A stretch of 64,000 bases of DNA from Stegostoma tigrinum (lineage: Eukaryota): NCBI RefSeq assembly GCF_030684315.1, contig NC_081359.1, positions 92,846,838 to 92,910,837 of the forward strand. The letters are read 5' to 3'. A program made the position numbers and the translations under genes. The notes under the pieces are model-generated. The model ran no database searches. It saw only the letters and a program-made list of their open reading frames with translations, and was not told the origin of the DNA. This document shows positions 5,620-63,660 of the stretch, one piece after another (the stretch's first letter is position 1; the number at the start of each line of letters is the position of its first letter).

Positions 5620-5995
5620 TAGGACTGTTAATCCAAAGATCCAGATTATGTTCTGAGGACCTGAGTTCAAATCCCACCATGCTAACAGTGATCAGAGATA
5701 ATGGGAACTACAGAGGCTGGAGAATCTGAGATAACAAAGTGTGGAGCTGGATGAACACAGCAGGCCGAGCAGCATCTTGGGAGCACAAAAGCTGACGTTT
5801 CGGGCCTAGACCCGTCATCAGAAAATTCAGTGAGGGTGGGGTTGGCGGAAATGTGGAATTAACAGTCTAATGGTGCTAAATCCATTGTTGATTGTTTGGA
5901 AAAAAAACCATCTGGTTCACGGACATCCTTTTTTAGGGATGGAAACTGCTATCCCTACTGGGCCTGGCCCATGTGACTCCAAATCCACAGCACTG
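5620..5995 (+). mobile_element. tRNA-derived SINE interrupted by a PLE terminal fragment (about 5693-5825)
   Basis: gagttcaaatcccaccatg B-box, then the PLE end, then the SINE body resumes (catctggttcac...catgtgactcc). Confidence 0.6.
5794..5821 (-). ncRNA. Minimal hammerhead ribozyme motif in PLE terminal repeat
   Basis: Reverse complement is CTGATGA-c-GGGTCTAGGCCC-GAAAC-GTC: intact core, stem II GGG/CCC, but a weak stem I. Confidence 0.55.
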
Positions 5996-46946: not shown

Positions 46947-48229
46947 AAGGAAAAGTGCTGAGATGGATCAGTTAAAAGACTGACCTTTGTCCCCATGCAT
47001 TGTGATATTTTGGGCCCTCTAGCCCTCACACCCTACCTCTACCAACTCCCCATGCAGCCTCAATACCAATTTATACCCTTGTGGTCCCTTGACCTCATGC
47101 CAGTCTATTGCCAAATTAGGGCCTTTCCATGCCCATTCACTGTGTACTTTGTGAAGAACTGATCAGCTACACAGTAATGATTGCATGTGCAGAACTGCTC
47201 ACAAATGCTATTTACAAATCTTCTTTTGAAAAAACTAATGTTCTTAGAAACCCTACTGGCGTGTCAATGAGACGGTCAATTACAGTATCAATAGCAGTGG
47301 TTTCAAGCATGTCACAACTCTTAATCTTGTACAAATAAACATTAAACATTTGAGACCTTGATAAAATATATCACAGGAATCAGACATCAACCAAGCAAAG
47401 ACAACAATTCTCTCCAGCAGTCAAAACAGAACACCTTTTGAGATAATACTTTTTATGACTCTGGGCTCTCAGGAAAGTCTCATTTTGTACTTTTTCGAGT
47501 AGCTCCACACATGCCATCATTATGTTAAGGCCTATTGTGTCTGTATGTAATTTAACAGTAAAATAAAGTGATCACAGTCTTGTCAGACCATAGGGCTGCT
47601 GATTCATTAGAGAAAAGTAGTGAGTTTAACCTGAGAGCCGTCATGCCTCTGGGAGGGGAGAGGTAGTGAAGGCAGGTGATCTGCCTGAAATAAAGCATAG
47701 CAGCAGGATATAACAAAACTGTACCAAAACCTCTTTCACCATCACTCTGAAGGCCATGAGCAGCAAGTCATGGAGGGGTTGACAAAACCTGACAAAAATT
47801 GTCAGGGATAATGGGAACTGCAGATGCTGGAGATTCCAAGATAATAAAATGTGAGGCTGGATGAACACAGCAGGCCAAGCAGCATCTCAGGAGCACAAGG
47901 AAAAGTGCTGAGATGGATCAGTTAAAAGACTGACCTTTGCCCCATGCATTGTGATATTTTGGGCCCTCTAGCCCTCACACCCTACCTCTACCAACTCCCC
48001 ATGCAGCCTCAATACCAATTTATACCCTTGTGGTCCCTTGACCTCATGCCAGTCTATTGCCAAATTAGGGCCTTTCCATGCCCATTCACTGTGTACTTTG
48101 TGAAGAACTGATCAGCTACACAGTAATGATTGCATGTGCAGAACTGCTCACAAATGCTATTTACAAATCTTCTTTTGAAAAAACTAATGTTCTTAGAAAC
48201 CCTACTGGCGTGTCAATGAGACGGTCAAT
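46947..48229 (+). repeat. Near-perfect direct duplication, 46947-47280 / 47897-48229
   Basis: Line-by-line comparison shows identity except one missing T (tttgtcccc vs tttgcccc). Confidence 0.95.
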
Positions 48230-48296
48230 GTGCTCCTGAGATGCTGCTTGGCCTGCTGTGTTCATCCAGCCTCACATTTTAAAAATTGTCAGGGAT
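47794..48296. mobile_element. Fold-back PLE family A insert whose centre is a copy of 46947-47280
   Basis: 16-bp TSD aaaaattgtcagggat (47794-47809, 48281-48296), perfect 53-bp inverted arms, 333-bp internal duplicate. Confidence 0.85.
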
Positions 48297-49377: not shown

Positions 49378-51120
49378 GTACAAAGCTCTCAATGTCTGAT
49401 TATTCAAATAATTTTAAATGCAATAACAAGACGACTAAGCAATGGCTATGTGATCCAGCACTCCCAGTGGGAAATAATGCTTTCAGGGAGTGCATCCTAG
49501 AAGACCAGGATGTGTGCATTACTCCTAATTGGGAGGATCTGTTCCTGAAGTCATTTTTTCTATTACATTGTGTAATCACAAGAGATTGAGTGGCTTATCA
49601 ATGAAACAGTGCCACTACTGGGAATCAAGGTGGGGGTCATTTTCAAGGTAGTGTGAAATGGGAAAATTCTGATCAGCCGCAATTTTACAACCCGACTTCC
49701 ATCTCTGAAAATAAGGAGAGGCATATAATGGACAGCTGATCCATTGTCACTCATTTTGCTGTCAAAACTATTCCAGTGCTTTCACTGAGAAAGTAAGTGT
49801 GTTTGCCTTTAAAATGATGCAAAGATTTGTCTTGGACAGTTAACCGACACAGAGAGAAAATGGTACAACCTGGGGACGGTGTCACGTGAAGCCTTACACC
49901 TCCCCACTGTAAATTCCAAATTTAAAGCAGACCAAAGGCAAATTACAAACTGTCCATTTTCAAAAAGAAATGACAAATTTGAATCGAAACCTTTAATGAG
50001 AACAGAAGGTCTCGACTCGCATCATTAAGTTGTCTTTTCACTTGTCAGGTATTGGCAGCTGCTTTGCATTTCTGGCATCATTTTCTTTCAGTAAGAATAT
50101 GATTAACATGTTGAATGAACAATATAAAGAGGAAGAGCTACTTAATTACATTATGCGTTGCTAAATAATTTCTTGCTACAACATAGTAGAACTCATCAGT
50201 TGGCTCCAGTCTGCATCTCTCCAGGAGGTTGCATGTGTCCTAGTCCATTTTTTTAAAAGTTGAATTTAATTGAATTTTCAATAAACATATTTGTGCCTTT
50301 TAATGCATCTTACATTATTTAATTCCCAGTTTTTTATTTGTTCCCCAGTTTCTGTTAAGTACAGACAGATGCTCCTAGCTACTAGCTTTTGTTACAATGT
50401 ACCTCCATTGTCACTCAAACTAGGTACTGGGCCTTTGCCAGAACAGGGGAGATCCTGTGTTAGAGTCAGCACCAGAGGCATCCGTTCCTGTGGGAGGTTA
50501 TTTCATTTTTTTATGCCTCTCACAACCAGTTTTGAGCAACAAAATAAATTTTTATACTGAAGGGTCCAATAAGTACTATCAGAATTCCAGCCCCCTCCCC
50601 CCAGGGCATTGTGGGTCTACCCAGCAGTGGACTGCATCAGTTCACAAGATGGCAGCTTAGCATTACCTCTAGGGACACACCATAAATGCTGGCTCAGTCA
50701 GCCCGCACCCATCCTGTGAGTGAATTAAAATGAAACTATTCCGGGATGAAAAGCACTTCACCTAAATAAATGGGAGTGCAGACTGGGCATGTGCATACCA
50801 TGTCCTCATGCCCTAAACAGTGGCTTTACATGGGCCAAAACCAGGAACTGGAATTATACCACGGCCAGTTTCCTCTTGGGTTGCTACAAGGAGAGGAGTG
50901 CCAAATTATGGAAGTACATTCTTTATTGATTGATTAATTTGGATCCCCAAGAGGCTGGAATGTATAAAGGCACATGTGTGGTACAAATGAGGAGCCTTGG
51001 TATCTATGGCAAGAAAGGGTACTGTTGTGGTGAAGTGGCAGTGTCCCTATCTCTGTACCGGGCAGCCCGTATTCAAGTTCTACCTGCTCCAGAGGTATGC
51101 CATAACGGGACTAAACAGGT

Positions 51121-51348
51121 CGATTAAAATAATTGTATCAGAGATAATGGGAACTGCAGATGCTGGAGAATCCAAGATAATAAAGTGTGAAGCTGGATGA
51201 ACACAGCAGGCCAAGCAGCATCTCAGGAGCACAAAAGCTGACGTTTCGGGTCTGATGAAGGGCCTAGGCCCGAAACGTCAGCTTTTGTGCTTCTGAGATG
51301 CTGCTGGGCCTGCTGTGTTCATCCAGCCCCACACGATTAAAATAATTG
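51121..51348. mobile_element. Fold-back PLE family A insert at the end of a short SINE
   Basis: 15-bp TSD cgattaaaataattg (51121-51135, 51334-51348); about 66-bp inverted arms around a hammerhead. Confidence 0.85.
51252..51279 (+). ncRNA. Minimal hammerhead ribozyme motif
   Basis: CTGATGA-a-GGGCCTAGGCCC-GAAAC-GTC. Confidence 0.6.
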
Positions 51349-51789
51349 CATAGCAGGAAATCAAGGGTGTACTTAATCACTAGATATTCTGGGCTTGATT
51401 TGACACAAGATGGGGAGGCTCATTAAATCAAGTGGACAGCACGTCTGCTGCCCTTCTGCCCATCCTTGCCCTGACCATAACTGGATCTTAGCAGCAGTAG
51501 TGTCGGGTGGTCTGCCCACTAGTAGTCCTTTAAGAGAGTATTTATTGACCATTTGCTTTTCCCTGTGCAGTCTACTGGCAGCCATTGGAGGATCTTTCGT
51601 GTACAGGCCTACTGAGCTCATTGGAGAGCTCCACGGTTTTACCCCACTGCAGAAAGTCCTCCTACCACCTTTCGCCACTCCCCTCCCCTGTCTCCGTGGC
51701 CTCTGAACCGTGAGTTCCCTTAAAGGGGTCTGTCAGCTTGGTGCCTGGCGAGACTCCCAAACATAACTTAATGAGCTGGACGCATTAAG

Positions 51790-51920
51790 GACTGCACATG
51801 CTGGAAGCTAGAGTCAAGTAATATGGGACTGGGAAGCACAGCAGGTCAGACAGCATCCAAGGAGCAGGGAAGTCAATGTTTTGAGCCAAAACCCTTCATC
51901 AGGACTTTCCAGCTCCACAT
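51790..51920 (-). mobile_element. PLE terminal fragment (family A variant) with decayed hammerhead at 51871-51906
   Basis: Reverse complement agtc-CTGATGA-agggttttggctc-AAAAC-ATT-gact: 4-bp stem I, GAAA mutated to AAAA. Confidence 0.55.
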
Positions 51921-52603
51921 ACCGTAGTGAGCCAGGCTGCATGTCTGAAGAACTGGGCAAGTGCCAAACTCTGATTGGCTAGGGTTCTATTAATAGCTTT
52001 TTTAGTTGGGATGGGGAGTTCAGTTCTTCATGTAACTCATCTCTATGTTTTCAGAATAAGTAACATAAAATGAGGTTTCAGAAGCTGCAAACAAAATCCA
52101 AGTCACTTATCAGTTTGCTTTTCATGTTAGAATGTAAAGTTACTGTATGCATTTTAGGTGGAATACATACCAGAATATAATTATTTTAATCAGTATTTGT
52201 GTGAAGTGCATTTAATATCCGAAGTGCAGTCATAGTAAAGCCTTGCTTCCTTGTCACTTTCACCATTTCTCATTGATGGAAACGCTATTGTAAGACCTCA
52301 CCCAAAGTATGCTCCAAGGAGTACTTCAGATTAACATCAGAGGGGCCTAAATTGATTGTTCCAACCTCCCCGTCAGCTCTGTGTTCTTAATCCAGCAAGG
52401 CATTTTGCTGCAAAATGGAGCATGGCCTTTGTATTGAACAAAGGGAAATACTGGAATGAATATTCCTGGCCCATTGGTGACAGTGTGACATGCTGGCAAT
52501 CTGTTTCAGTTAAGTGAATCCAATTGGCGGAGGTAACAAGATAATAAAATGTGAGGCTGGATGAACATAGCAGGCCAAGCAGCATCTCAGGAGCACAAAA
52601 GCT

Positions 52604-52631
52604 GACGTTTCGGGCCTAGACCCTTCATCAG
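52604..52631 (-). ncRNA. Minimal hammerhead ribozyme motif (left arm)
   Basis: Reverse complement is CTGATGA-a-GGGTCTAGGCCC-GAAAC-GTC. Confidence 0.6.
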
Positions 52632-52907
52632 AGAGGGGGATGGGGAGAAGGAACTGGAATAAATAGGGAGAGAGGGGGAGGCGGACCGAAGATGGAGAGT
52701 CAATGGGAGAGAGATTCCCCGAGGTTGGTCCGGAGGGAGGAGGGTATCTCTGATACTATTTTAACCTCACTGCGAAGCCCACCTGAAGAAGTTACCCTCC
52801 TCCCTCCGGACCAACCTCAGGGAATCTCTCTCCCATTGACTCTCCATCTTCGGTCCGCCTCCCCCTCTCTCCCTATTTATTCCAGTTCCTTCTCCCCATC
52901 CCCCTCT

Positions 52908-52935
52908 CTGATGAAGGGTCTAGGCCCGAAACGTC
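52908..52935 (+). ncRNA. Minimal hammerhead ribozyme motif (right arm)
   Basis: CTGATGA-a-GGGTCTAGGCCC-GAAAC-GTC; only about 2 bp of local stem I. Confidence 0.6.
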
Positions 52936-54078
52936 AGCTTTTGTGCTCCTGAGATGCTGCTTGGCCTGCTGTGTTCATCCAGCCTCACATTTTATTATCT
53001 TGGAATTCTCCAGCATCTGCAGTTCCCATTATCTCTGATACTATTTTAACGAGGTAACAATGTGGGTTTTAAGATCAATCCTTTGTACAGCATATTCTAG
53101 AGTCAGCCAAAGGTAAGGGGTATCATAGGAATACCTGTCCCTAGATGATGCTGATCATAATGTGATTAACTTCAGCTAGAGGGAAAGAAAAGTGTTTTAA
53201 ACTTAAATATGAGTCATTAGATGGTATGAAGACAGAAATAGCCAAACTGAACTGGGAAATTAGGTTAACCGATAAGTTGGTCAAGATCCAGTGGCAAACA
53301 TTTAATGAGATATTTCATTTAGCAAATATAGATTTCAATGAGAGAGATTTTTGGAAAAAAAATGCACTGTTCATGGCAGGGCAAAGAAGGTAAGGAGAAT
53401 TTCAAGTTGGAAGAAAAAGTGTTCTAGCCAACTCCAGAACCACCTCGGATCTTACACTACAAAGGTCATGGATCTTATAAATAGAGTTGAAAATGAAAAG
53501 AAAAGTTGTTTAAATATGAGATTACAAAAGACCAGTGATATTGAACTGTATGTATTTTTAAAAGGTGATATCTAACCCAGCCAGAGACTTATCCAACCCT
53601 AGCTTGAAGGAATTCAGTCAATCCTTGTCATTGTATGAGCTGACAGACTGTCCCACAGTTTCACTATTTTCTGGGAGCAGAAGAACATGTAATGTCTAAC
53701 CTAGTTCTGATATGCCCTGGCTTGAACTTGTGATTCCTTGTCATTCTAATCTATTTTGTTGAAACAAGATCTCGCACTATTCAATCTAATTGCTTCTTCA
53801 TCTTGTATAGTTCAGTCAAATTACCTGTAGGTCTCTGCTTCTGTAAAGTGTGGAACCTCAGCACTTTGAGCCTATCTTGGTAAACCACCATAACCACATT
53901 ATGTTGTACGTTTTTGCTATTTTCAGAAATTTACTTTCTAAGCAATTTCTTTTTGTACGTTCTCTCAAAGCTATGTCCGATTGAAAAAACGAGCAATTTT
54001 TTCAGTTTTTTATTCTGTCATTTTGTCCATTTTCATTTCCTATCTTTGACTGAACCTTTTCCTAATTCCATCCCACAG

Positions 54079-54147
54079 TACTCTGACCCTTACAAGAATC
54101 ATAGCTCCTTGACTTTAGGTGGGACAGGCAGCGAAGAAGAAGAGCAG
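54079..54147 (+). CDS. CRACDL: CRACDL-like coding exon 5, 69-nt symmetric exon (YSDPYKNHSSLTLGGTGSEEEEQ)
   Basis: Long pyrimidine tract plus cacag| acceptor, cag|gtaata donor, phase 0/0, in frame between exons 4 and 6. Resembles the SLxLxGxGSEEEE segment of the family. Confidence 0.78.
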
Positions 54148-54438
54148 GTAATAATTCAAAACTCCCAATTTTGGGAGGACCCTCAAAAGCCTACATAGGA
54201 AATAATTAGCTGCGAGCATACCTCTCAACTGTCCCAGTTTAATCAGGAGACCCCTGTATGTTGCTTCAGAAAGCTGCATGTGAGACTGCAAGCAGGCTTG
54301 TTGAATAGTGCTAGAATATTGCTCGCCCATACCAAACAAAGAACCAAATTCCGCCTTTTCAATACCTTTTGAAACTGCTGATTGAGAGGTGTGGTTGGGA
54401 GAGTTCACTCAGTGGACGGTGCGAGTTAAGTCGCAGCG

Positions 54439-54551
54439 TCAGTAACAGAGATGAAGGGCCCGGGCCCGAAACGTCAGCTTTTGTGCTCCTGAGATGCTGC
54501 TTGGCCTGCTGTGTTCATCCAGCCCCACACTTTGTTATCAGTAACAGAGAT
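54439..54551 (+). mobile_element. 85-bp PLE family A micro-insert starting inside the hammerhead
   Basis: 14-bp TSD tcagtaacagagat (54439-54452, 54538-54551) around gaagggcccgggcccgaaacgtcagc...cacactttgtta. Confidence 0.8.
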
Positions 54552-54604
54552 TTTGTGAGGTTAGTTTGTAAATAACACGAAGTTGTCAGAGAGTAGAAGG
54601 TTGT

Positions 54605-54950
54605 TTTTTAATTCATTCTTGGGATGTGGGCATCACTGGCCAGGTCAGCGTTTATTGCCCGTCGCTAAAAGCGGAAAGGACAGTTAAGTGTCAACCATAT
54701 TGCTGTGTGTCTGGAGCCATGTGTCAGACAAGTTAAGGGCAACAGTTTCCTTCCCTATTGGGCATTAGGGAACCAAATGGGTTCTCCTGACAATTGACAA
54801 CAGTTTCGTGGTCGTCCTTCGACTCTTAATTCCAGATTTTTATTTCATTCAAATTCCATAATCAGCCATAGTGGGATTTGAACCTAGGTCCCCAGAACAT
54901 TACCAGGGTCTCAGGGTAAATATACTAGTGATTATATCAGTAGGTTGTCA
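54605..54950 (-). mobile_element. tRNA-derived SINE
   Basis: Reverse complement of the 11945/31680 family; gtgggatttgaacc B-box. Confidence 0.65.
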
Positions 54951-55027
54951 TCTCCACTTCACTGTAGAGGTTTGCCCTGCATGTACATAATGGCACTGAA
55001 AGGATATGAAAAGTAAGGATGTGTCGC

Positions 55028-56702
55028 GATAACAAGATGTCGAGCTAGATGAACACAGCAGGCCAAGCAGCATCAGAGGAGCAGGAAGCTGACGTTTCGG
55101 GCCTAGACGCTGCTTCAGAAATGGGGGAGGGGAAGGGGGTTCTGAAATAAATGGGGAGGGGGGGAGGTGGATAGTTGGTGGATAAAGGAGAAGATAGGTG
55201 GAGAGGAGATAGACAGGTCAAGGAGGCGGGGTTGGAGCCAGTAAAGTTGAGTGTAGGTGGGGAATTAGGGAGGGGATAGGTCAGTCCAAGGAGGATGGAC
55301 AGGTCAAGGAGGTGGGATTGGGCTAGTAGGTAGGAGATAGGGGTGGGACTTTAGGTGGGAGAACAAGTTAGGGAGGCGGGTACGAGCTGGGCTGGTTTTG
55401 GCACGTGGTTGGGGGAGGGGGATTTTGAAGTTTGTGAAGTCCACATTGATACCATTAGGCTGCAGGGTTCCCAAGCAAAATATGAGATGCTGTTTCTGCA
55501 AACTTTGGGTGGCATCGTTGTGGCACTGCAGGAGGCTCAGGATAGACATGTCGTCCAAGGAGGGTGAGTTGAAATGGTTTCCAACTGGAAGGTGCAGTTG
55601 TCTGTTCCAAACCGAGCGCAGGTGCTCCACAAAGTGATCCCCAAGCTACTGCTTGGTTTCCCCAATGTAGAAGAGGCCACATTGGGAACAGCAGATACAG
55701 TTTACCACATTAGCAGATGTGGATCTGTTCGATGTGGAAGGTCTTTTTAGGGCCGGGGATGGGGGTGAGGGGGGAGGTATAGGGGCGGGTGTAGTACTTG
55801 CTCCGGTTGCAGGGGAAAGTGTCGGGTGTGGTGGGGGTGGAGTGGACAAGGGAGTCATGGAGAGAGTGGTCCCTCTGGAAAGCAGATAAGGATGGGGAGG
55901 GAAAGATGTCTTTGGTAGTGGGGTCAGATTGCAGATGGCGGAAGTGTCGGAGGATGATGCGTTGGATCCGGAAGTTGGTGGGGTGTACATGAAGATGAGA
56001 GGGATTCTGTTTTGGGTTTTATTGTGGGGAGCGGGTGTGAGGGATGAGTTGCTGGAAATGCGGGAGACACGGTCGAGGGCGTTTTTGACCATGTGGAGGG
56101 GAAGTTGCAGTCCTCGGAAAAACGAGGACATCTGGGTTGTCCGGGAGCGGAATGCCTCATCTTGGGAGCAGATGTGGCAGAGGCGAAGGAATTGGAAATA
56201 GGGGATGGAATTTTTGCAGGAAGGCAGGTGAGAGGAAGTGTAATCCAGGTAGCTGTGGGAGTTGGTGGGCTTGAAATGGATATCACTTTCTAGGTGGTTG
56301 CCAGAGATGGAAACAGAGAGGTCCAGGAAGGAGAGTGAGGTATCAGAGATAGTCCAGGTGAACTTAAGGTTGGGTTGGAAGGTGTTGGTGAAGTGGTTGA
56401 ACTGTTCAAGCTCCTCATGGAAGCGTGAGGCGGCGCCGATACAGTCATCAATGTAACGGAGGAAGAGGTGGGGTTTGGGGCCAGTGTAGGTACAGAAGAC
56501 GGATTGTTCCAGGTATCCTCCAAAGAGGCAGGTATAGCTTGGGCCCAAACGGGTACCCATGGCCACCCCCTTTGTCTATAGGACATTAGAGGAATTGAAG
56601 GAGAAGTTGTTAAGGGTGAGGAGGAGTTCAGCTAAGTGGATGAGGGGGTCAGTGGAGGGAGACTGTTTGGGCCTGCGGGACAGGAAGAAGTGGAGGGCCT
56701 TT
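55028..56702 (-). mobile_element. 5'-truncated Penelope-like element (RT + GIY-YIG endonuclease, frameshifted) with family A terminus
   Basis: GVAMGTRLGPSY, FLRYIDDCIG, LSFLDL, FKPTNSHSYLDYTSSH, CSQCGLFYIGETK and EHLRSV..PVGNHFNS. Candidate TSD aggatg(t/g)gtcg at 55016-55026 and 56703-56713. Confidence 0.92.
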
Positions 56703-57275
56703 AGGATGGGTCGATATGTGTTTCCTTTTTAATCACAATCTTGTCTTCTCCTAGGTGTATCTTACTTTTACTTTTTTAGTTTATTTTGTACATGGATTGT
56801 CGACAGTGCTGGCTCGGCTAGCTTTTATTGTCCACTCAAGTTGCCCTTGAGAAGGTGATGGTGGATCGTGTGGTGTTAGGATGCCCTACAGGTTCCCACA
56901 GGAGGGAGTTCTGGGTTTTTGGCTCAGAAACAGTGAGGAAATGTTAATATGGCTCCCTGTCAGGGTGGTGTGTGGCTTGGAGGGGAGCTTGCGGTTGGTG
57001 ATGTTCTGTTCATGCTTAGCTTTAAGTTCTAATATTTTCCCTGCCACTGAGAATAAACTAAGTGTCCTGTGTAAATGTTTAACAGCTCTGTAATACACTG
57101 TAAAGTGCTGCAGTTTATAGACCTGCTCCTCTGGGAAGGAAAGTCTAGGCCTCCCTAGGACTGGAAGTAACCATTTCTTTATGAGATACTTCCTATTCTA
57201 CATCTACCAGGATGTCAACAGGTCGCACTGAGGCGCATGGTTCAGACATAAAAATCACACTGCTCTCTATTGTGT

Positions 57276-57377
57276 AGGGATAGTAGGAACTGCAGATGCT
57301 GGAGAATCTGAGATAACAAGGTGTAGAGCTGGATGAACACAGCAGGCCAAGCAGCATCAGAGGAGCAGGAGGAGGGT
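57276..57377 (-). mobile_element. PLE family A terminal fragment
   Basis: gggatagtaggaactgcagatgctggagaatctgagataacaagg...; degenerate 16-bp flanking repeats at 57260-57275 and 57378-57393. Confidence 0.7.
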
Positions 57378-57720
57378 CTGCTTTCTGTTGTATGTTCTGC
57401 AGAATCAATTCCTAATAGATTGGGGTAGATGGCTGACATCAATCCTCCTACCCTTCTGAAGAGATAAACAATTAATGGTTTAGATGGTCCCTAAGTGAGG
57501 CACTGTTACAAAAAGTCAAGAGGTCAGTGGAAACTTAAAAGGAAACTGATCAAATCAAATCAAAATATCATTCCCAGGGCTAATGTTCCTTTTCACTCTT
57601 TTAAATAAAACCTTAAACAAGTTAGACCATCTCTGATGGGACATTGTAACAAATCAAACAATTAATGGGAACTTACCGAATAAATAAGTTAAATTATTGT
57701 TACCAAATCTCCTTTCTAAT

Positions 57721-57960
57721 CAAAAGCAGGAATTACTGGAAAATCTCAACAGGTCTGGCAGCATTTGTGGAGAGAAAACACAGTTAAAGCTTCAGGTCCA
57801 GCCACTCTTCTTTGAATTGAGTGTTCTGAAGAAGGGACCACTGGACCTGAAACGCTAACTGTGGTTTCTCTCCACAAATGCTGCCAGACCTGCTGAGATT
57901 TTTCAGAAAAGTTTGTTTTTGTTTCAGGTTTCCAGCATCGACAGTTCTTTGTTCTTTTTT
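57721..57960. mobile_element. Fold-back PLE family C insert with decayed hammerhead (57823-57859)
   Basis: caggtctggcagcatttgtggagagaaaacacagtta is inverted versus taactgtggtttctctccacaaatgctgccagacctg; gtt-CTGAAGA-...-GAAAC-GCT-aac. Confidence 0.75.
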
Positions 57961-60659
57961 CTCCTTTCCAATCAACTTGTTCGGACATGTTGCGAAACAT
58001 CGCTGGAGCAAGAGGGAACTGAACCCGAGTCTCCTGGGTCAGAGTTAGGGACATTATCAGTGCACCGTAGATAACTTTCCTCCTTTCTATTTGGGTCTAA
58101 GATTCTATTTGGTGGTTAGAGTGGTAAAGTATGAATCACTCGTGAGTCTTAATGAAAAAAGGCACGTCTGTTAAAAACAAGATTAAGTTTGCTGCACGGC
58201 AGCTTTGGATACAGTGACATCAGGTAATTAGATGTGATAACTAATTTTATCAGGAGATAATTATGATTTCATTGTTTCCATTGGGAACTTGAGCTGGATT
58301 CCTCATTTCCCTAAGACTGTACGACATCGTCAGATTGGGTGGAATTTAATGTAGTCTTGGACATTAATCTTTTCGGGACCATTATATCATACAAAGGCTT
58401 CCTCTTCTGTATGCGGTAAACTAATTGACTCCTACAGTTTCCCACTAGGAATTAGCATTGATCCCTCTGAACCGTGTCCTTCATTTAAAACAGATTTAAT
58501 CATTGCAAGGTTCTTTTTAACAACATTGTACTTTTCTCCATGGTCTACTGTGCTCAAGCTTAGCTGTCACTCTTGTATTATTTTGTCCCTTTCTCTTAGA
58601 TGTACTTTAAAATGCATCATGCTGTGACCACTGCTATGAGTTCAATTCCATGACTAAAATTGCCTGGAACAGACACATTTTTAGTCCTGCTCATCTTTCT
58701 AATCTGTGTACAGAATGCCTCTTCCATTTCTTTCCCATAACTTAAAAGCCTAAAATAAGCTGCCATGAATATAGCAAGCTTTTTGTTCGAACTCCAGCAA
58801 TAATAACTGTCTGTACCTCTTCCTTGTCTACCACCTACTTTATCTTGCCTAATCTTCCTCTGTATAAAATGTTAACATTTATCTTGCTTCCAAAGAATAG
58901 ATGAGGCACTACTTAATTGTGTATAGTAATTACTGGCAGACACACAACGCAAGAGCTTTCTTGAGATTGTAAAAAGTCTTTGTTAGTTAGTGATAATCTG
59001 AAAATGAAATGTTATGAATGAATTCATTTAGTTTTTCTCTACCTCAATGGGTTACATTACAAGTTTGAACAATGCTTGATTTTTGCCATAAATTCTGTCA
59101 ATGAGATCATTTTACTCTCTTTCCTTTGTGCATATTCATTCAGAGTTCCCACCATAACTCCAATGATACAATCAATCTGTGGCCTCGAAACTGGATCAGT
59201 TTGTAAACTGAGAGTCAGTGTGTTCCCTGATTGGAAGCTTGACATGTTAAGCAGTGATGGAATCTCCAAATGGATGATAGTTCCCACTCTCTTTGGTTAT
59301 CTGAGAGTCTTTCAATGTGAATTATTAACTGAAACCAAAAATTGTGGACAGTAGAAGGGCCTGTGATCAATGCAGTATGTCCTATGTAATCTGCCCTTAC
59401 TGTCACAGTATGTAGACTTCCCACTTTTTCCAGAAGCCAGGTACTGTCCTGGAAGAGGGAAGCAAAACAGATGAACCCTCGGGTCAGTTAGAGGAAGAAA
59501 AATGTTGTTGGCAGAAGCAAAGAAAGAGGATAGACAATCACAATTATATGGCAGGAAATGACCTGAAACCAGTGGCTGAAGAATCAACTCCATCTGGGCC
59601 ATGTCTAGTTTTGCTGCAAGCTTCAAATTGAGCTCCATTGAATAGGAAGGAATTCTGTAACTGTGTTCACTTAAAATTTCAAAATAATCTTTGCTTAAGA
59701 TGAGCTTGCGCAAGCATGCAGGGGGACCACCATTTAAACCCAGACTTGGCACCAAGTTACACTGATCATGGTAGTGGTGCTTGTGGAACAGTGGCAGTGC
59801 CCCTACCTCTGAGCTATAAGGCCTGGTTCAAGTTCCACCTGTACCAGAGGTGTGCCATGCCACATCTGGGCAGCTTATTTAAAACCTATGTACACCAGTA
59901 ATGGTTACCAACTCAGAATTGGAACTAACCCTGGATTTAGAGTTTCACTTTGTATATCAACAAACTAGTCCTTTTAATACACCCCTAAGACGATTTTAGA
60001 GACTTGTGAACCACGTGTGCTACCTGATATGATTGGTCAGTTTTCATTGTGTTTCAAATGAGTTCCTGTTCATAAACACATCTTTTTTAAACGTACCGTA
60101 ACCCATTAGCAATCAAGTTAGTTTTATAAGTTAAAATCCATGAACCAGTGTTATACCACCTTAATAAATCTGTTAGCTTTGGTACATTGCTGTTATAATC
60201 AATTGAAGTCACTGCTGGGAATTAATCAGTGCATCAAAATGTCTGTTCATGTGAGGCCATTGATATAATTATATCAAACAAACTGATTTAAGTAGCCATT
60301 GGAATGATCAATTATTCAGTTGAAACATATTTGAATATTTACTTTAATAAAATAAATCCCCCATAATATGAATATATAAAATTTATGATAAAATGTAACC
60401 CAAGAAAGAAGTGGTGTGTTTTATTTGCATATGACAGTTTGATTGTCGATGCCTACAGTATGTGTTTTGCACACAGCAGAAACCTGTAAACAATAATTTA
60501 GTGATGAGCTAATTAATCAATTTATCAGTTTACATGAGGAACATTAATTTGGAGAACTTAATGATCTTTGATTTGTACAAGAAATGTGTGCAATGCGAGC
60601 CTGAGAGATTGAATGATAGAAAGGTCCTTCATTTACCATTCCATTACATTTTCAATACT

Positions 60660-62834: not shown

Positions 62835-63660
62835 AGATGATGATCGTTAGATGCCATTTCTGCCACCTCCAGCAAGATGCCGCCACCACCAGACACACAT
62901 TCCCCTTTCCTCCCTTGTCCACCTTCCACAGGGACCGTTCCCTCCATTTCCTTCACCCCCAATACCTCCCCACAGCCCTGTGGACCTTCCCCTGTAACTG
63001 GCAAAGGTGCAAAACCTGTTCATTTACCTCCTCCCTCCTCAGTATCCAAGGGTCCAAACATACCTTCCAGTTGATGCAACACTTCACCTGCCCTTGCCAG
63101 AATCAGGTCAACTGCATTTGTTGCTCACAAAGTGGTCTCCTCTACACTGGGGAAACGAAGTGTAGACTTGGTGACCACTTTGTAGAACATCTACATTCTA
63201 CCCGCAGAAAAGACCCTGAACTACCTGTTGCCTGCCACTTCGATGCACCCCCCTGCTCCCTGGCCAACATCTCTATCTCTGGCTTGCTACAGTGTTCCAG
63301 TGAAGCCCAGCGCAAGCTGGAGGAACAACACCTCATTTTCCGTTTGGGGACCCTACAGCCCTCAGGACTGAACATTTGAGTTCAATAATTTTAGGGCTTA
63401 AACTCTCCCATGTCCCAGCAACCCCCCCCCCCCCCCCCCACACCTCACACACCTTGTTACCACATAGCCTGCCATTACACCCCTTGTTGTTAGTCACTAA
63501 CAGTCCCCATTAACAACTGTTCACCCTCCCAGCCTGATTGTTAGCAACTCCTTTGTCTGCCCAACTGTCTTTCCGTCTCTTCGGACTCTATCCTATCGTT
63601 TACTCCCTACTCCACTCACCTCCCTCTTTTTCTGCATATAAACTGATGTTTTCCCTGACA
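62835..63660 (+). mobile_element. Penelope-like element fragment (GIY-YIG endonuclease and 3' UTR, family C)
   Basis: ORF 62837-63379: FPCNWQRCKTC, CSQSGLLYTGETKCRLGDHFVEHL, PVACHF, RKLEEQHLIFRLGTLQPSGLNI. Confidence 0.88.

Follow-up and report, generated by a model that had tools for sequence, protein, structure and literature searches.

A young, internally deleted copy of an abundant shark PLE family in inverted arrangement

Architecture of the insert

The window, that is, the whole stretch of 64,000 nucleotides of Stegostoma tigrinum DNA that was analysed and to which all positions refer, contains a compact insert at 52530-53060. The insert proper occupies 52540-53050 (511 bp) and is flanked by a 10-bp direct repeat, the TSD, at 52530-52539 and 53051-53060. 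The chance of ten bases agreeing at fixed ends is about 2 in a million. Along the insert, the left TSD is followed by an inverted arm, a sense copy, a tail and the right TSD. The inverted arm (52537-52746, minus strand) is the reverse complement of 52793-53002 with identity at 208 of 210 positions, the mismatches being 52568/52971 and 52720/52819, and a spacer of 46 bp (52747-52792) lies between the two arms of the palindrome. Recomputation of the coordinates confirmed arms, spacer and TSD as they had been claimed in an earlier, sequence-only reading of this DNA. The final three bases of the left TSD overlap the inverted arm and double as its start, a 3-nt microhomology, and the 3' end of this arm is located at the inner of two end sites of the family (site 2, 52999-53003). 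At the head-to-head joint (52745-52746), inverted arm and sense copy have the two bases TA in common, a 2-nt microhomology.

The sense copy (plus strand) starts with the final 21 nt of an upstream pLTR or unit (52745-52765), which mark the point of 5' truncation and are identical to 53030-53050 at a spacing of 285. This is the terminal redundancy noticed in the sequence-only reading, which had the period of 285 nt right and gave the repeat itself as a 20-mer instead of 21 nt. A leader (52766-52780) links the pLTR end to a 5' segment of the parent PLE (52781-52838), which probably comprises the first codons of the ORF and has retained no ATG. At the deletion junction J1 (52838/52839) this 5' segment is fused to the 3' UTR with loss of the RT and GIY-YIG coding region. 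Both arms bear the fusion, the copy in the inverted arm being situated at 52700/52701. J1 is followed by the polypyrimidine 3' UTR (52839-52906), by a minimal type I hammerhead (52906-52937; motif as defined in PMC4209133) and, in the sense copy only, by a tail of 48 nt (53003-53050) between the two family end sites. The earlier count of one hammerhead is correct per strand; with the mirrored core on the minus strand at 52631 the insert holds two.

Four of 23 public runs were aligned to the locus, namely the contigs of X3, X4 and X5 and the raw reads of X22, and everything reported below on differences, joints, loose ends and contigs in these runs concerns the best-supported ones. X3 and X4 are two samples from one study. 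In both, a single contig of 1463 nt, taken as single copy at its depth of 9.72 and 21.6, spans 53026-53610 with 0 differences and thereby crosses the right TSD. The presence of this identical contig in two of the three contig sets shows the 3' insertion junction to be real; this flank is uncovered in X5, a small run, and in X22, a thin sample of raw reads. Among the public-run records listed, none spans the palindrome centre or the left junction, and long near-perfect palindromes can be artefactual. Nevertheless, an assembly or library fold-back artefact is a most improbable explanation of the structure, given that the arms differ at two positions, that a 10-bp TSD brackets the insert, that the outer end of the arm falls on a family-specific site, that four older pairs of the same build are present in the window and that the right junction was found in two samples.

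The PLE family in the window

The unit of the insert matches 14 loci within the 64-kb window (E < 0.001), and five of these are head-to-head pairs (13004, 44061, 47794, 51124 and the focal insert). Four of the five pairs have one arm stopping at the outer end site (53034-53050), while its partner stops at or close to the inner one (52989-53003); the focal arms stop at these two habitual 3' sites of the family. A TSD of 8-16 bp was found at six of the ten loci tested, while two have 6-bp repeats at chance level and two have none. Solo copies terminate at the inner site as well (54539, with a 14-bp TSD, and 55028), so that the inner site is regarded as a primary start site. In the public runs, loose read ends accumulate behind 53000 and 53039.

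Outside the insert, at 55028-56704 on the minus strand, lies a 5'-truncated and frameshifted coding copy of a related subfamily, comprising the C-half of the RT, GIY-YIG and the 3' UTR and ending at site 2. Its closest named proteins, among 179 matches, are those of Rhincodon (83%), Stegostoma (79%) and Chiloscyllium (66-72%), encoded by ORFs with RT and GIY-YIG. Compared with P0003, a protein with RVT_1 and GIY-YIG matches, the value is 77% over 240 aa. A Pfam search with three frameshifted pieces of the coding copy gave no match. The insert had been described as diverging from this coding copy upstream of the purine/pyrimidine tract. Similarity indeed ends there, at 52854, because the copy represents another subfamily; the true break within the element is at 52838/52839. 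A parent with RT and GIY-YIG, the pLTR arrangement, a tail on one side and a minimal hammerhead in the pLTR were all found, as is characteristic of EN+ PLEs.

The published scheme for PLEs features an inverted 5'-adjacent copy, a tail at one end and a short TSD (PMC8557442, PMC3846280), and one described PLE copy combines inverted pLTRs, a 10-bp TSD and an internal deletion (PMC3846280). The insert is almost certainly a deleted PLE in this standard inverted arrangement. Its mirror-image arm is the family's ordinary inverted pLTR and the repeated end likewise belongs to the normal insertion pattern. We conclude that the insert is a young copy of a very common shark PLE family that has lost nearly all of its coding middle, and that it illustrates, in well-preserved form, a known insertion pattern of an abundant shark repeat. 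From the sequence-only reading, the young, internally deleted, non-coding shark PLE derivative with a hammerhead is retained, and the signature of rolling reverse transcription is given up for reasons detailed below.

The insert resembles Pen2/Pen2a from Adineta vaga (PMC3846280) in the combination of an inverted 5'-adjacent copy with a direct copy, in the tail at one end and in a TSD of 9-10 bp. Unlike Pen2/Pen2a, it is devoid of almost the whole ORF, and its inverted arm crosses the deletion junction. The tail has 48 nt in the shark insert compared to 30-40 in Pen2/Pen2a (PMC3846280). Two 3' end sites that bound the tail and a hammerhead in the pLTR are also found in PAc, the Poseidon element of Anolis carolinensis (PMC11167929). 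In PAc the ORF begins inside the hammerhead and the start sites are within the ORF, whereas the ORF of the shark element likely starts downstream of both sites. Non-autonomous PLEs of Chlamys, e.g. MRC1 (PMC8557442), are comparable in being PLE-derived, non-coding, pLTR-forming and mobilised in trans. However, the MRC1-type elements are established active families with head-to-tail multimers (PMC8557442), whereas J1 of the shark is known from one locus. No description of shark PLE minis was found in the literature searched, which was mostly without subscription papers, Repbase and preprint supplements.

Further PLE remains were noticed in the window. A second, more distant coding fragment at 62843-63376 (plus strand) covers the linker and GIY-YIG region with 54% to P0003. 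An older inverted repeat at 57718-57924, with arms of 84 nt at 85% and a degenerate hammerhead core at 57826, probably belongs to another PLE family. The small head-to-head pair at 51121-51348 has a 15-bp TSD and arms that differ at several positions, and one of these differences was found again in the copy at 54450. An opposite-strand joint 52909/52925, as in this pair, is present in 281 raw reads of X22. Among the joints listed for X3/X4 are those of 52983-53003 with 53033-53041 (8-37 contigs each), in which the inner site of one copy meets the outer site of a second; the two copies have opposite orientation and apparently touch with their tails. The inner and outer end sites have a similar near-palindromic motif. 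Possible host exons are located on either side of the insert on the plus strand, at 51569-51703 and 54079-54147; no protein or Pfam search gave a match for these candidate exons.

Deletion junction and terminal repeat in the public runs

The junction that had been proposed as a probe for a genome-wide search proved to be the true deletion junction: the 3' UTR begins at 52839 and the 5' segment is a separate part of the parent. From 52839 onward the unit is normal 3' UTR, matching the read-through tail of the Stegostoma protein P0004 at 34/37 aa. Raw reads diverging from the reference just before 52839-52843 run into the usual upstream UTR and are numerous (4682, 5994 and 3024). For 52781-52838 the coverage amounts to 346-392 raw reads vs about 16,300 for the 3' UTR, as expected of 5' sequence where family members are heavily truncated.

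Judged by its position and by what is known of shark PLE proteins, 52781-52838 is probably the start of the ORF. The sequence-only reading had found no recognisable PLE protein coding in the mini-element. This is correct for RT and GIY-YIG, which are absent, and doubtful for 52783-52836, where 18 codons, close behind the pLTR end, are open and probably represent the ORF start of the parent PLE. A protein search with the 5' frame of the unit, read through its stop, yielded 12 candidates, none at E <= 10, and the peptide of the 5' segment scored 1.0 bit against an HMM built from the N-termini of 20 full-length relatives. The best local match of the peptide was P0124 with a score of 36, equalled by 0 of 1000 shuffles. 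This match was found after looking and is positioned at residues 41-58, off the protein start, and we therefore do not count it as proof. The motif of the 5' segment had 0 matches in metagenome contigs.

The abundance of J1 was bounded from reads and contigs. At 52838, X22 has a depth of 61-70, with 26 reads showing the normal UTR base and 12 without the base. At most 35-47 X22 reads are able to span J1, and point variants of UTR reads could explain all of them; J1 does not exceed 0.3% of the 3' UTR depth. With an assumed genome of 3-5 Gb, X22 gives an upper bound of about 110-240 J1 copies, with no lower bound beyond the focal locus, and under the same assumption about 1,100-1,800 copies of the 5' segment and 50,000-84,000 of the UTR. 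The upper bound from contigs at 52838 is 129-155 copy-equivalents, all of which could be accounted for by point variants of parent copies. In X5 the depth at 52838 is zero, and no contig among those listed for the public runs spans J1 exactly. Within the window J1 has two matches, both inside the focal insert. We infer that the J1 donor is a rare lineage, with between one and at most about 150-200 junction copies, among tens of thousands of family stumps.

Related deletions are present in the same runs. Summed contig depth was taken as copy number only where one or a few contigs carry the joint. A sister fusion, 52822>52858 with four added letters, is carried by one contig in X3/X4 at a depth of 187.5 and 356, corresponding to 19 and 16.5 copy-equivalents. 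The fusion 52810>52936, defined by its end points, reaches about 9 copy-equivalents, and one X4 contig (about 2 copies) traverses the region with 8 gaps. A sister deletion at about 17-19 copy-equivalents indicates that small non-coding lineages exist, and as a candidate for an amplifying mini, junction 52822>52858 ranks above focal J1. The clustering of the junctions is no evidence of selection, since only junctions inside the reference are visible.

The terminal redundancy had been interpreted as what rolling reverse transcription would leave. However, the pLTR end also runs on into the 5' segment in other copies (joint 53050>52781), with 133 raw reads in X22, and one 21-letter variant of this joint has a depth of 325 and 587, i.e. 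33 and 27 copy-equivalents. The leader of the insert (52766-52780) is 6 nt shorter than the 21-nt variant of the public runs, and the exact short leader is rare (3 reads at 52780 vs 346 at 52788). As other genomic copies join the pLTR end to the 5' segment, 52745-52765 represents the last part of an upstream pLTR, where copying came to a halt. Any partial-tandem PLE truncated at that point would look alike. A linear partial tandem yields the terminal repeat as easily as a circle does, and rolling reverse transcription is therefore not evidenced by it. The donor may still have been tandem or circular, given J1 in both arms and the multi-copy sister deletion.

Possible origins of the insert

With middling confidence, we propose that both ends of one break primed the copying of a pre-existing, rare, deleted PLE template, at the two start sites of the family. 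In such a process the GIY-YIG enzyme of an intact relative would cut both strands 10 bp apart, and the RNA template would already have been without its coding middle before insertion. The first DNA end would prime at the outer site (53050), copy 305 nt and halt 21 nt into the upstream pLTR. The second DNA end would prime at the inner site (53002), aided by the 3-nt target microhomology, and copy 210 nt, after which the cDNA ends would be joined via two common bases. The template may have consisted of two RNAs, both from one deleted donor and bound by a dimeric enzyme, or of a single linear partial-tandem RNA with two units. Because the two cDNAs overlap in copied sequence, J1 is needed twice in the template pool. 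Both arms come from one lineage, since they have J1 in common as well as a T at 52890, a position occupied by C in 92-99% of the public-run sequence. In vitro, the anole PLE cuts and extends both strands and has two start sites that bound the tail; it is a predicted dimer and also requires about 55-60 nt downstream of the start sites (PMC11167929). A similar need may exist in the shark element. The start sites of PAc are non-homologous to the cut DNA (PMC11167929), in contrast to the 3-nt microhomology invoked here.

Another pair in the window bears on this proposal. The arms of the pair at 47794-48281 are separated by 330 bp of flank whose source, 99.7% identical, lies about 0.5-0.85 kb upstream at 46949-47279; such a copied flank fits separately primed cDNAs and thus supports two-ended priming. 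The arms of this pair end at 52941 and 52942, 5-6 nt off the predicted ribozyme cut. With its 16-bp TSD the pair extends over 47794-48296, the arms measure 105 and 53 nt, and both joints have 1-2 nt of microhomology. Several points speak against two-ended priming. No J1 copy was seen beyond the locus in the window and in the contigs listed, a non-coding donor would a priori hardly be expected to provide two RNAs in trans unless it was well expressed, and fold-back of the first cDNA explains the common junction equally well. None of the PLE papers searched uses the term 'twin priming', and in these papers two-ended priming is not demonstrated for PLE inversions.

Fold-back would be part of a one-off event, in which the RT, on a full-length or partial-tandem PLE RNA, left the 3' UTR for the 5' segment in a template jump and made J1 during insertion, with no deleted donor involved. 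The cDNA would then have halted in the upstream pLTR, folded back on two bases with a loop of 46 nt and copied itself, and the hairpin would have been resolved at the inner site. We regard this course as possible, though less probable than two-ended priming. A single template accounts for J1 and T52890 in both arms, and self-priming has been proposed, and a fold-back model favoured, for PLE palindromes (PMC3846280). Both J1 (at most 35-47 raw reads) and the short leader (3 reads) are rare, and 6 of 28 sampled words, not itemised, are absent even from insertion-bearing runs (share 0.79), as if private words had been dropped from contigs. However, the copied arm must halt exactly at the inner start site, one that is used by solo insertions, and the fold-back rests on just two bases. 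Multi-copy sister deletions (about 17-19 and about 9 copy-equivalents) furthermore indicate that deleted templates do get copied, in line with two-ended priming on a deleted template. As the rare junction marks both arms, counting J1 in the genome separates fold-back from two-ended priming, a point left undecided in the PLE papers cited.

The core of the hammerhead in the sense copy is formed by CUGAUGA (52908-52914) and GAAACGUC (52928-52935). An extra A precedes helix II, which has 4-5 bp, a palindromic ACGU replaces helix III, and cleavage is predicted after 52935 with a helix I of just 2 bp. In the folding predictions the active-like fold (-3.1) is outcompeted by 8 kcal/mol by an inactive pairing (-11.0) in which the core is buried. 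Self-pairing of the unit is below that of shuffles (linear z +1.07; circular z +1.25, 92/100 shuffles being as good), and 48% of the bases are paired in the circular fold. For the minimal PLE hammerhead, monomers are reported to lack activity and dimers to have little (PMC4209133), and ribozyme mutants of the anole element had no effect on insertion in vitro (PMC11167929). The hammerhead of the insert appears to be the parent's pLTR motif, passively carried along. With one hammerhead per strand, the focal copy, judged by its sequence, is probably unable to release RNA of unit length and probably represents a dead end. A search of Rfam over the window gave 0 matches reaching the gathering score; 34 matches by E-value in 50500-58500, all below gathering and mostly to miRNA and snoRNA models drawn by hairpins, were rejected.

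A further interpretation, which we consider unlikely, is that of an amplifying non-LTR retrozyme, with 285-nt tandem arrays, cleavage to monomers by dimeric hammerheads and circles copied for more than one round by the PLE enzyme. The unit of 285 nt is inside the range of 170-400 nt reported for animals (PMC7229834), and non-LTR retrozymes with a mean of 363 bp occur in one chondrichthyan (bioRxiv 10.64898/2026.07.22.740005). The catalytic core is intact, and two J1 in one insert fit a tandem template, the sense cDNA ending 28 nt before the would-be start of the second cDNA on the upstream unit. In addition, the unit retains 73 nt downstream of the outer start site, where the anole element needs about 55-60 nt, and the sister fusion is present at 17-19 copy-equivalents. 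On the other hand, an active non-LTR retrozyme has, by its working definition, at least two consecutive hammerhead units (bioRxiv 10.64898/2026.07.22.740005), and the locus has 1.07. A search for tandem arrays of 285-nt period, as had been suggested, found none in the 64-kb window. The minimal PLE hammerhead with its 2-bp helix I is predicted to favour the inactive fold by 8 kcal/mol, the unit is less self-paired than shuffles, unlike the highly self-paired retrozyme circles (PMC7229834), and J1 stays at or below 0.3% of the 3' UTR depth. Moreover, if the template were a true 285-nt circle, the stretch copied into the second cDNA would already be covered by the first.

The shark unit shares with animal non-LTR retrozymes (PMC7229834; bioRxiv 10.64898/2026.07.22.740005) its non-coding nature, a length of about 285 nt, the type I hammerhead, the origin from PLE pLTRs and a TSD above 4 bp. 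It differs from them in its minimal rather than canonical hammerhead, its poor self-pairing and its 1.07 units, and is known here from DNA alone. It also includes a fused 5' piece of the parent, and the main text of the preprint has 0 mentions of 'deletion' or 'ORF' (bioRxiv 10.64898/2026.07.22.740005). Were J1 or the multi-copy sister found to be tandem and expressed, this would show an origin of non-LTR retrozymes from PLEs.

A broader and rather doubtful hypothesis combines these elements: shark PLEs may repeatedly yield minis of 250-290 nt in which the 3' UTR is fused to the segment just beyond the start sites, some of them amplifying as tandem units, and the focal insert may stem from a two-unit RNA primed at both ends of one break. 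If this were true, the minis would hold every cis signal in one short unit and represent a retrozyme lineage caught at birth, and priming from opposite ends at two start sites would explain the inverted pLTR and the one-sided tail of PLEs.

Two observations on the ends of family copies are added here. The target sites 52530-52539, 47794-47809 and 51121-51135 are similar to the element's reverse complement around the end sites, which in these few cases suggests microhomology-guided priming. The stumps have a cluster of 5' ends at 52907-52910, where the hammerhead core begins, and not at the cut site. Stumps ending at the core edge are located in the window at 5822, 13116, 44151, 51251, 51902 and 54450, and in X3/X4 about 700 contigs per run have loose ends before 52907.
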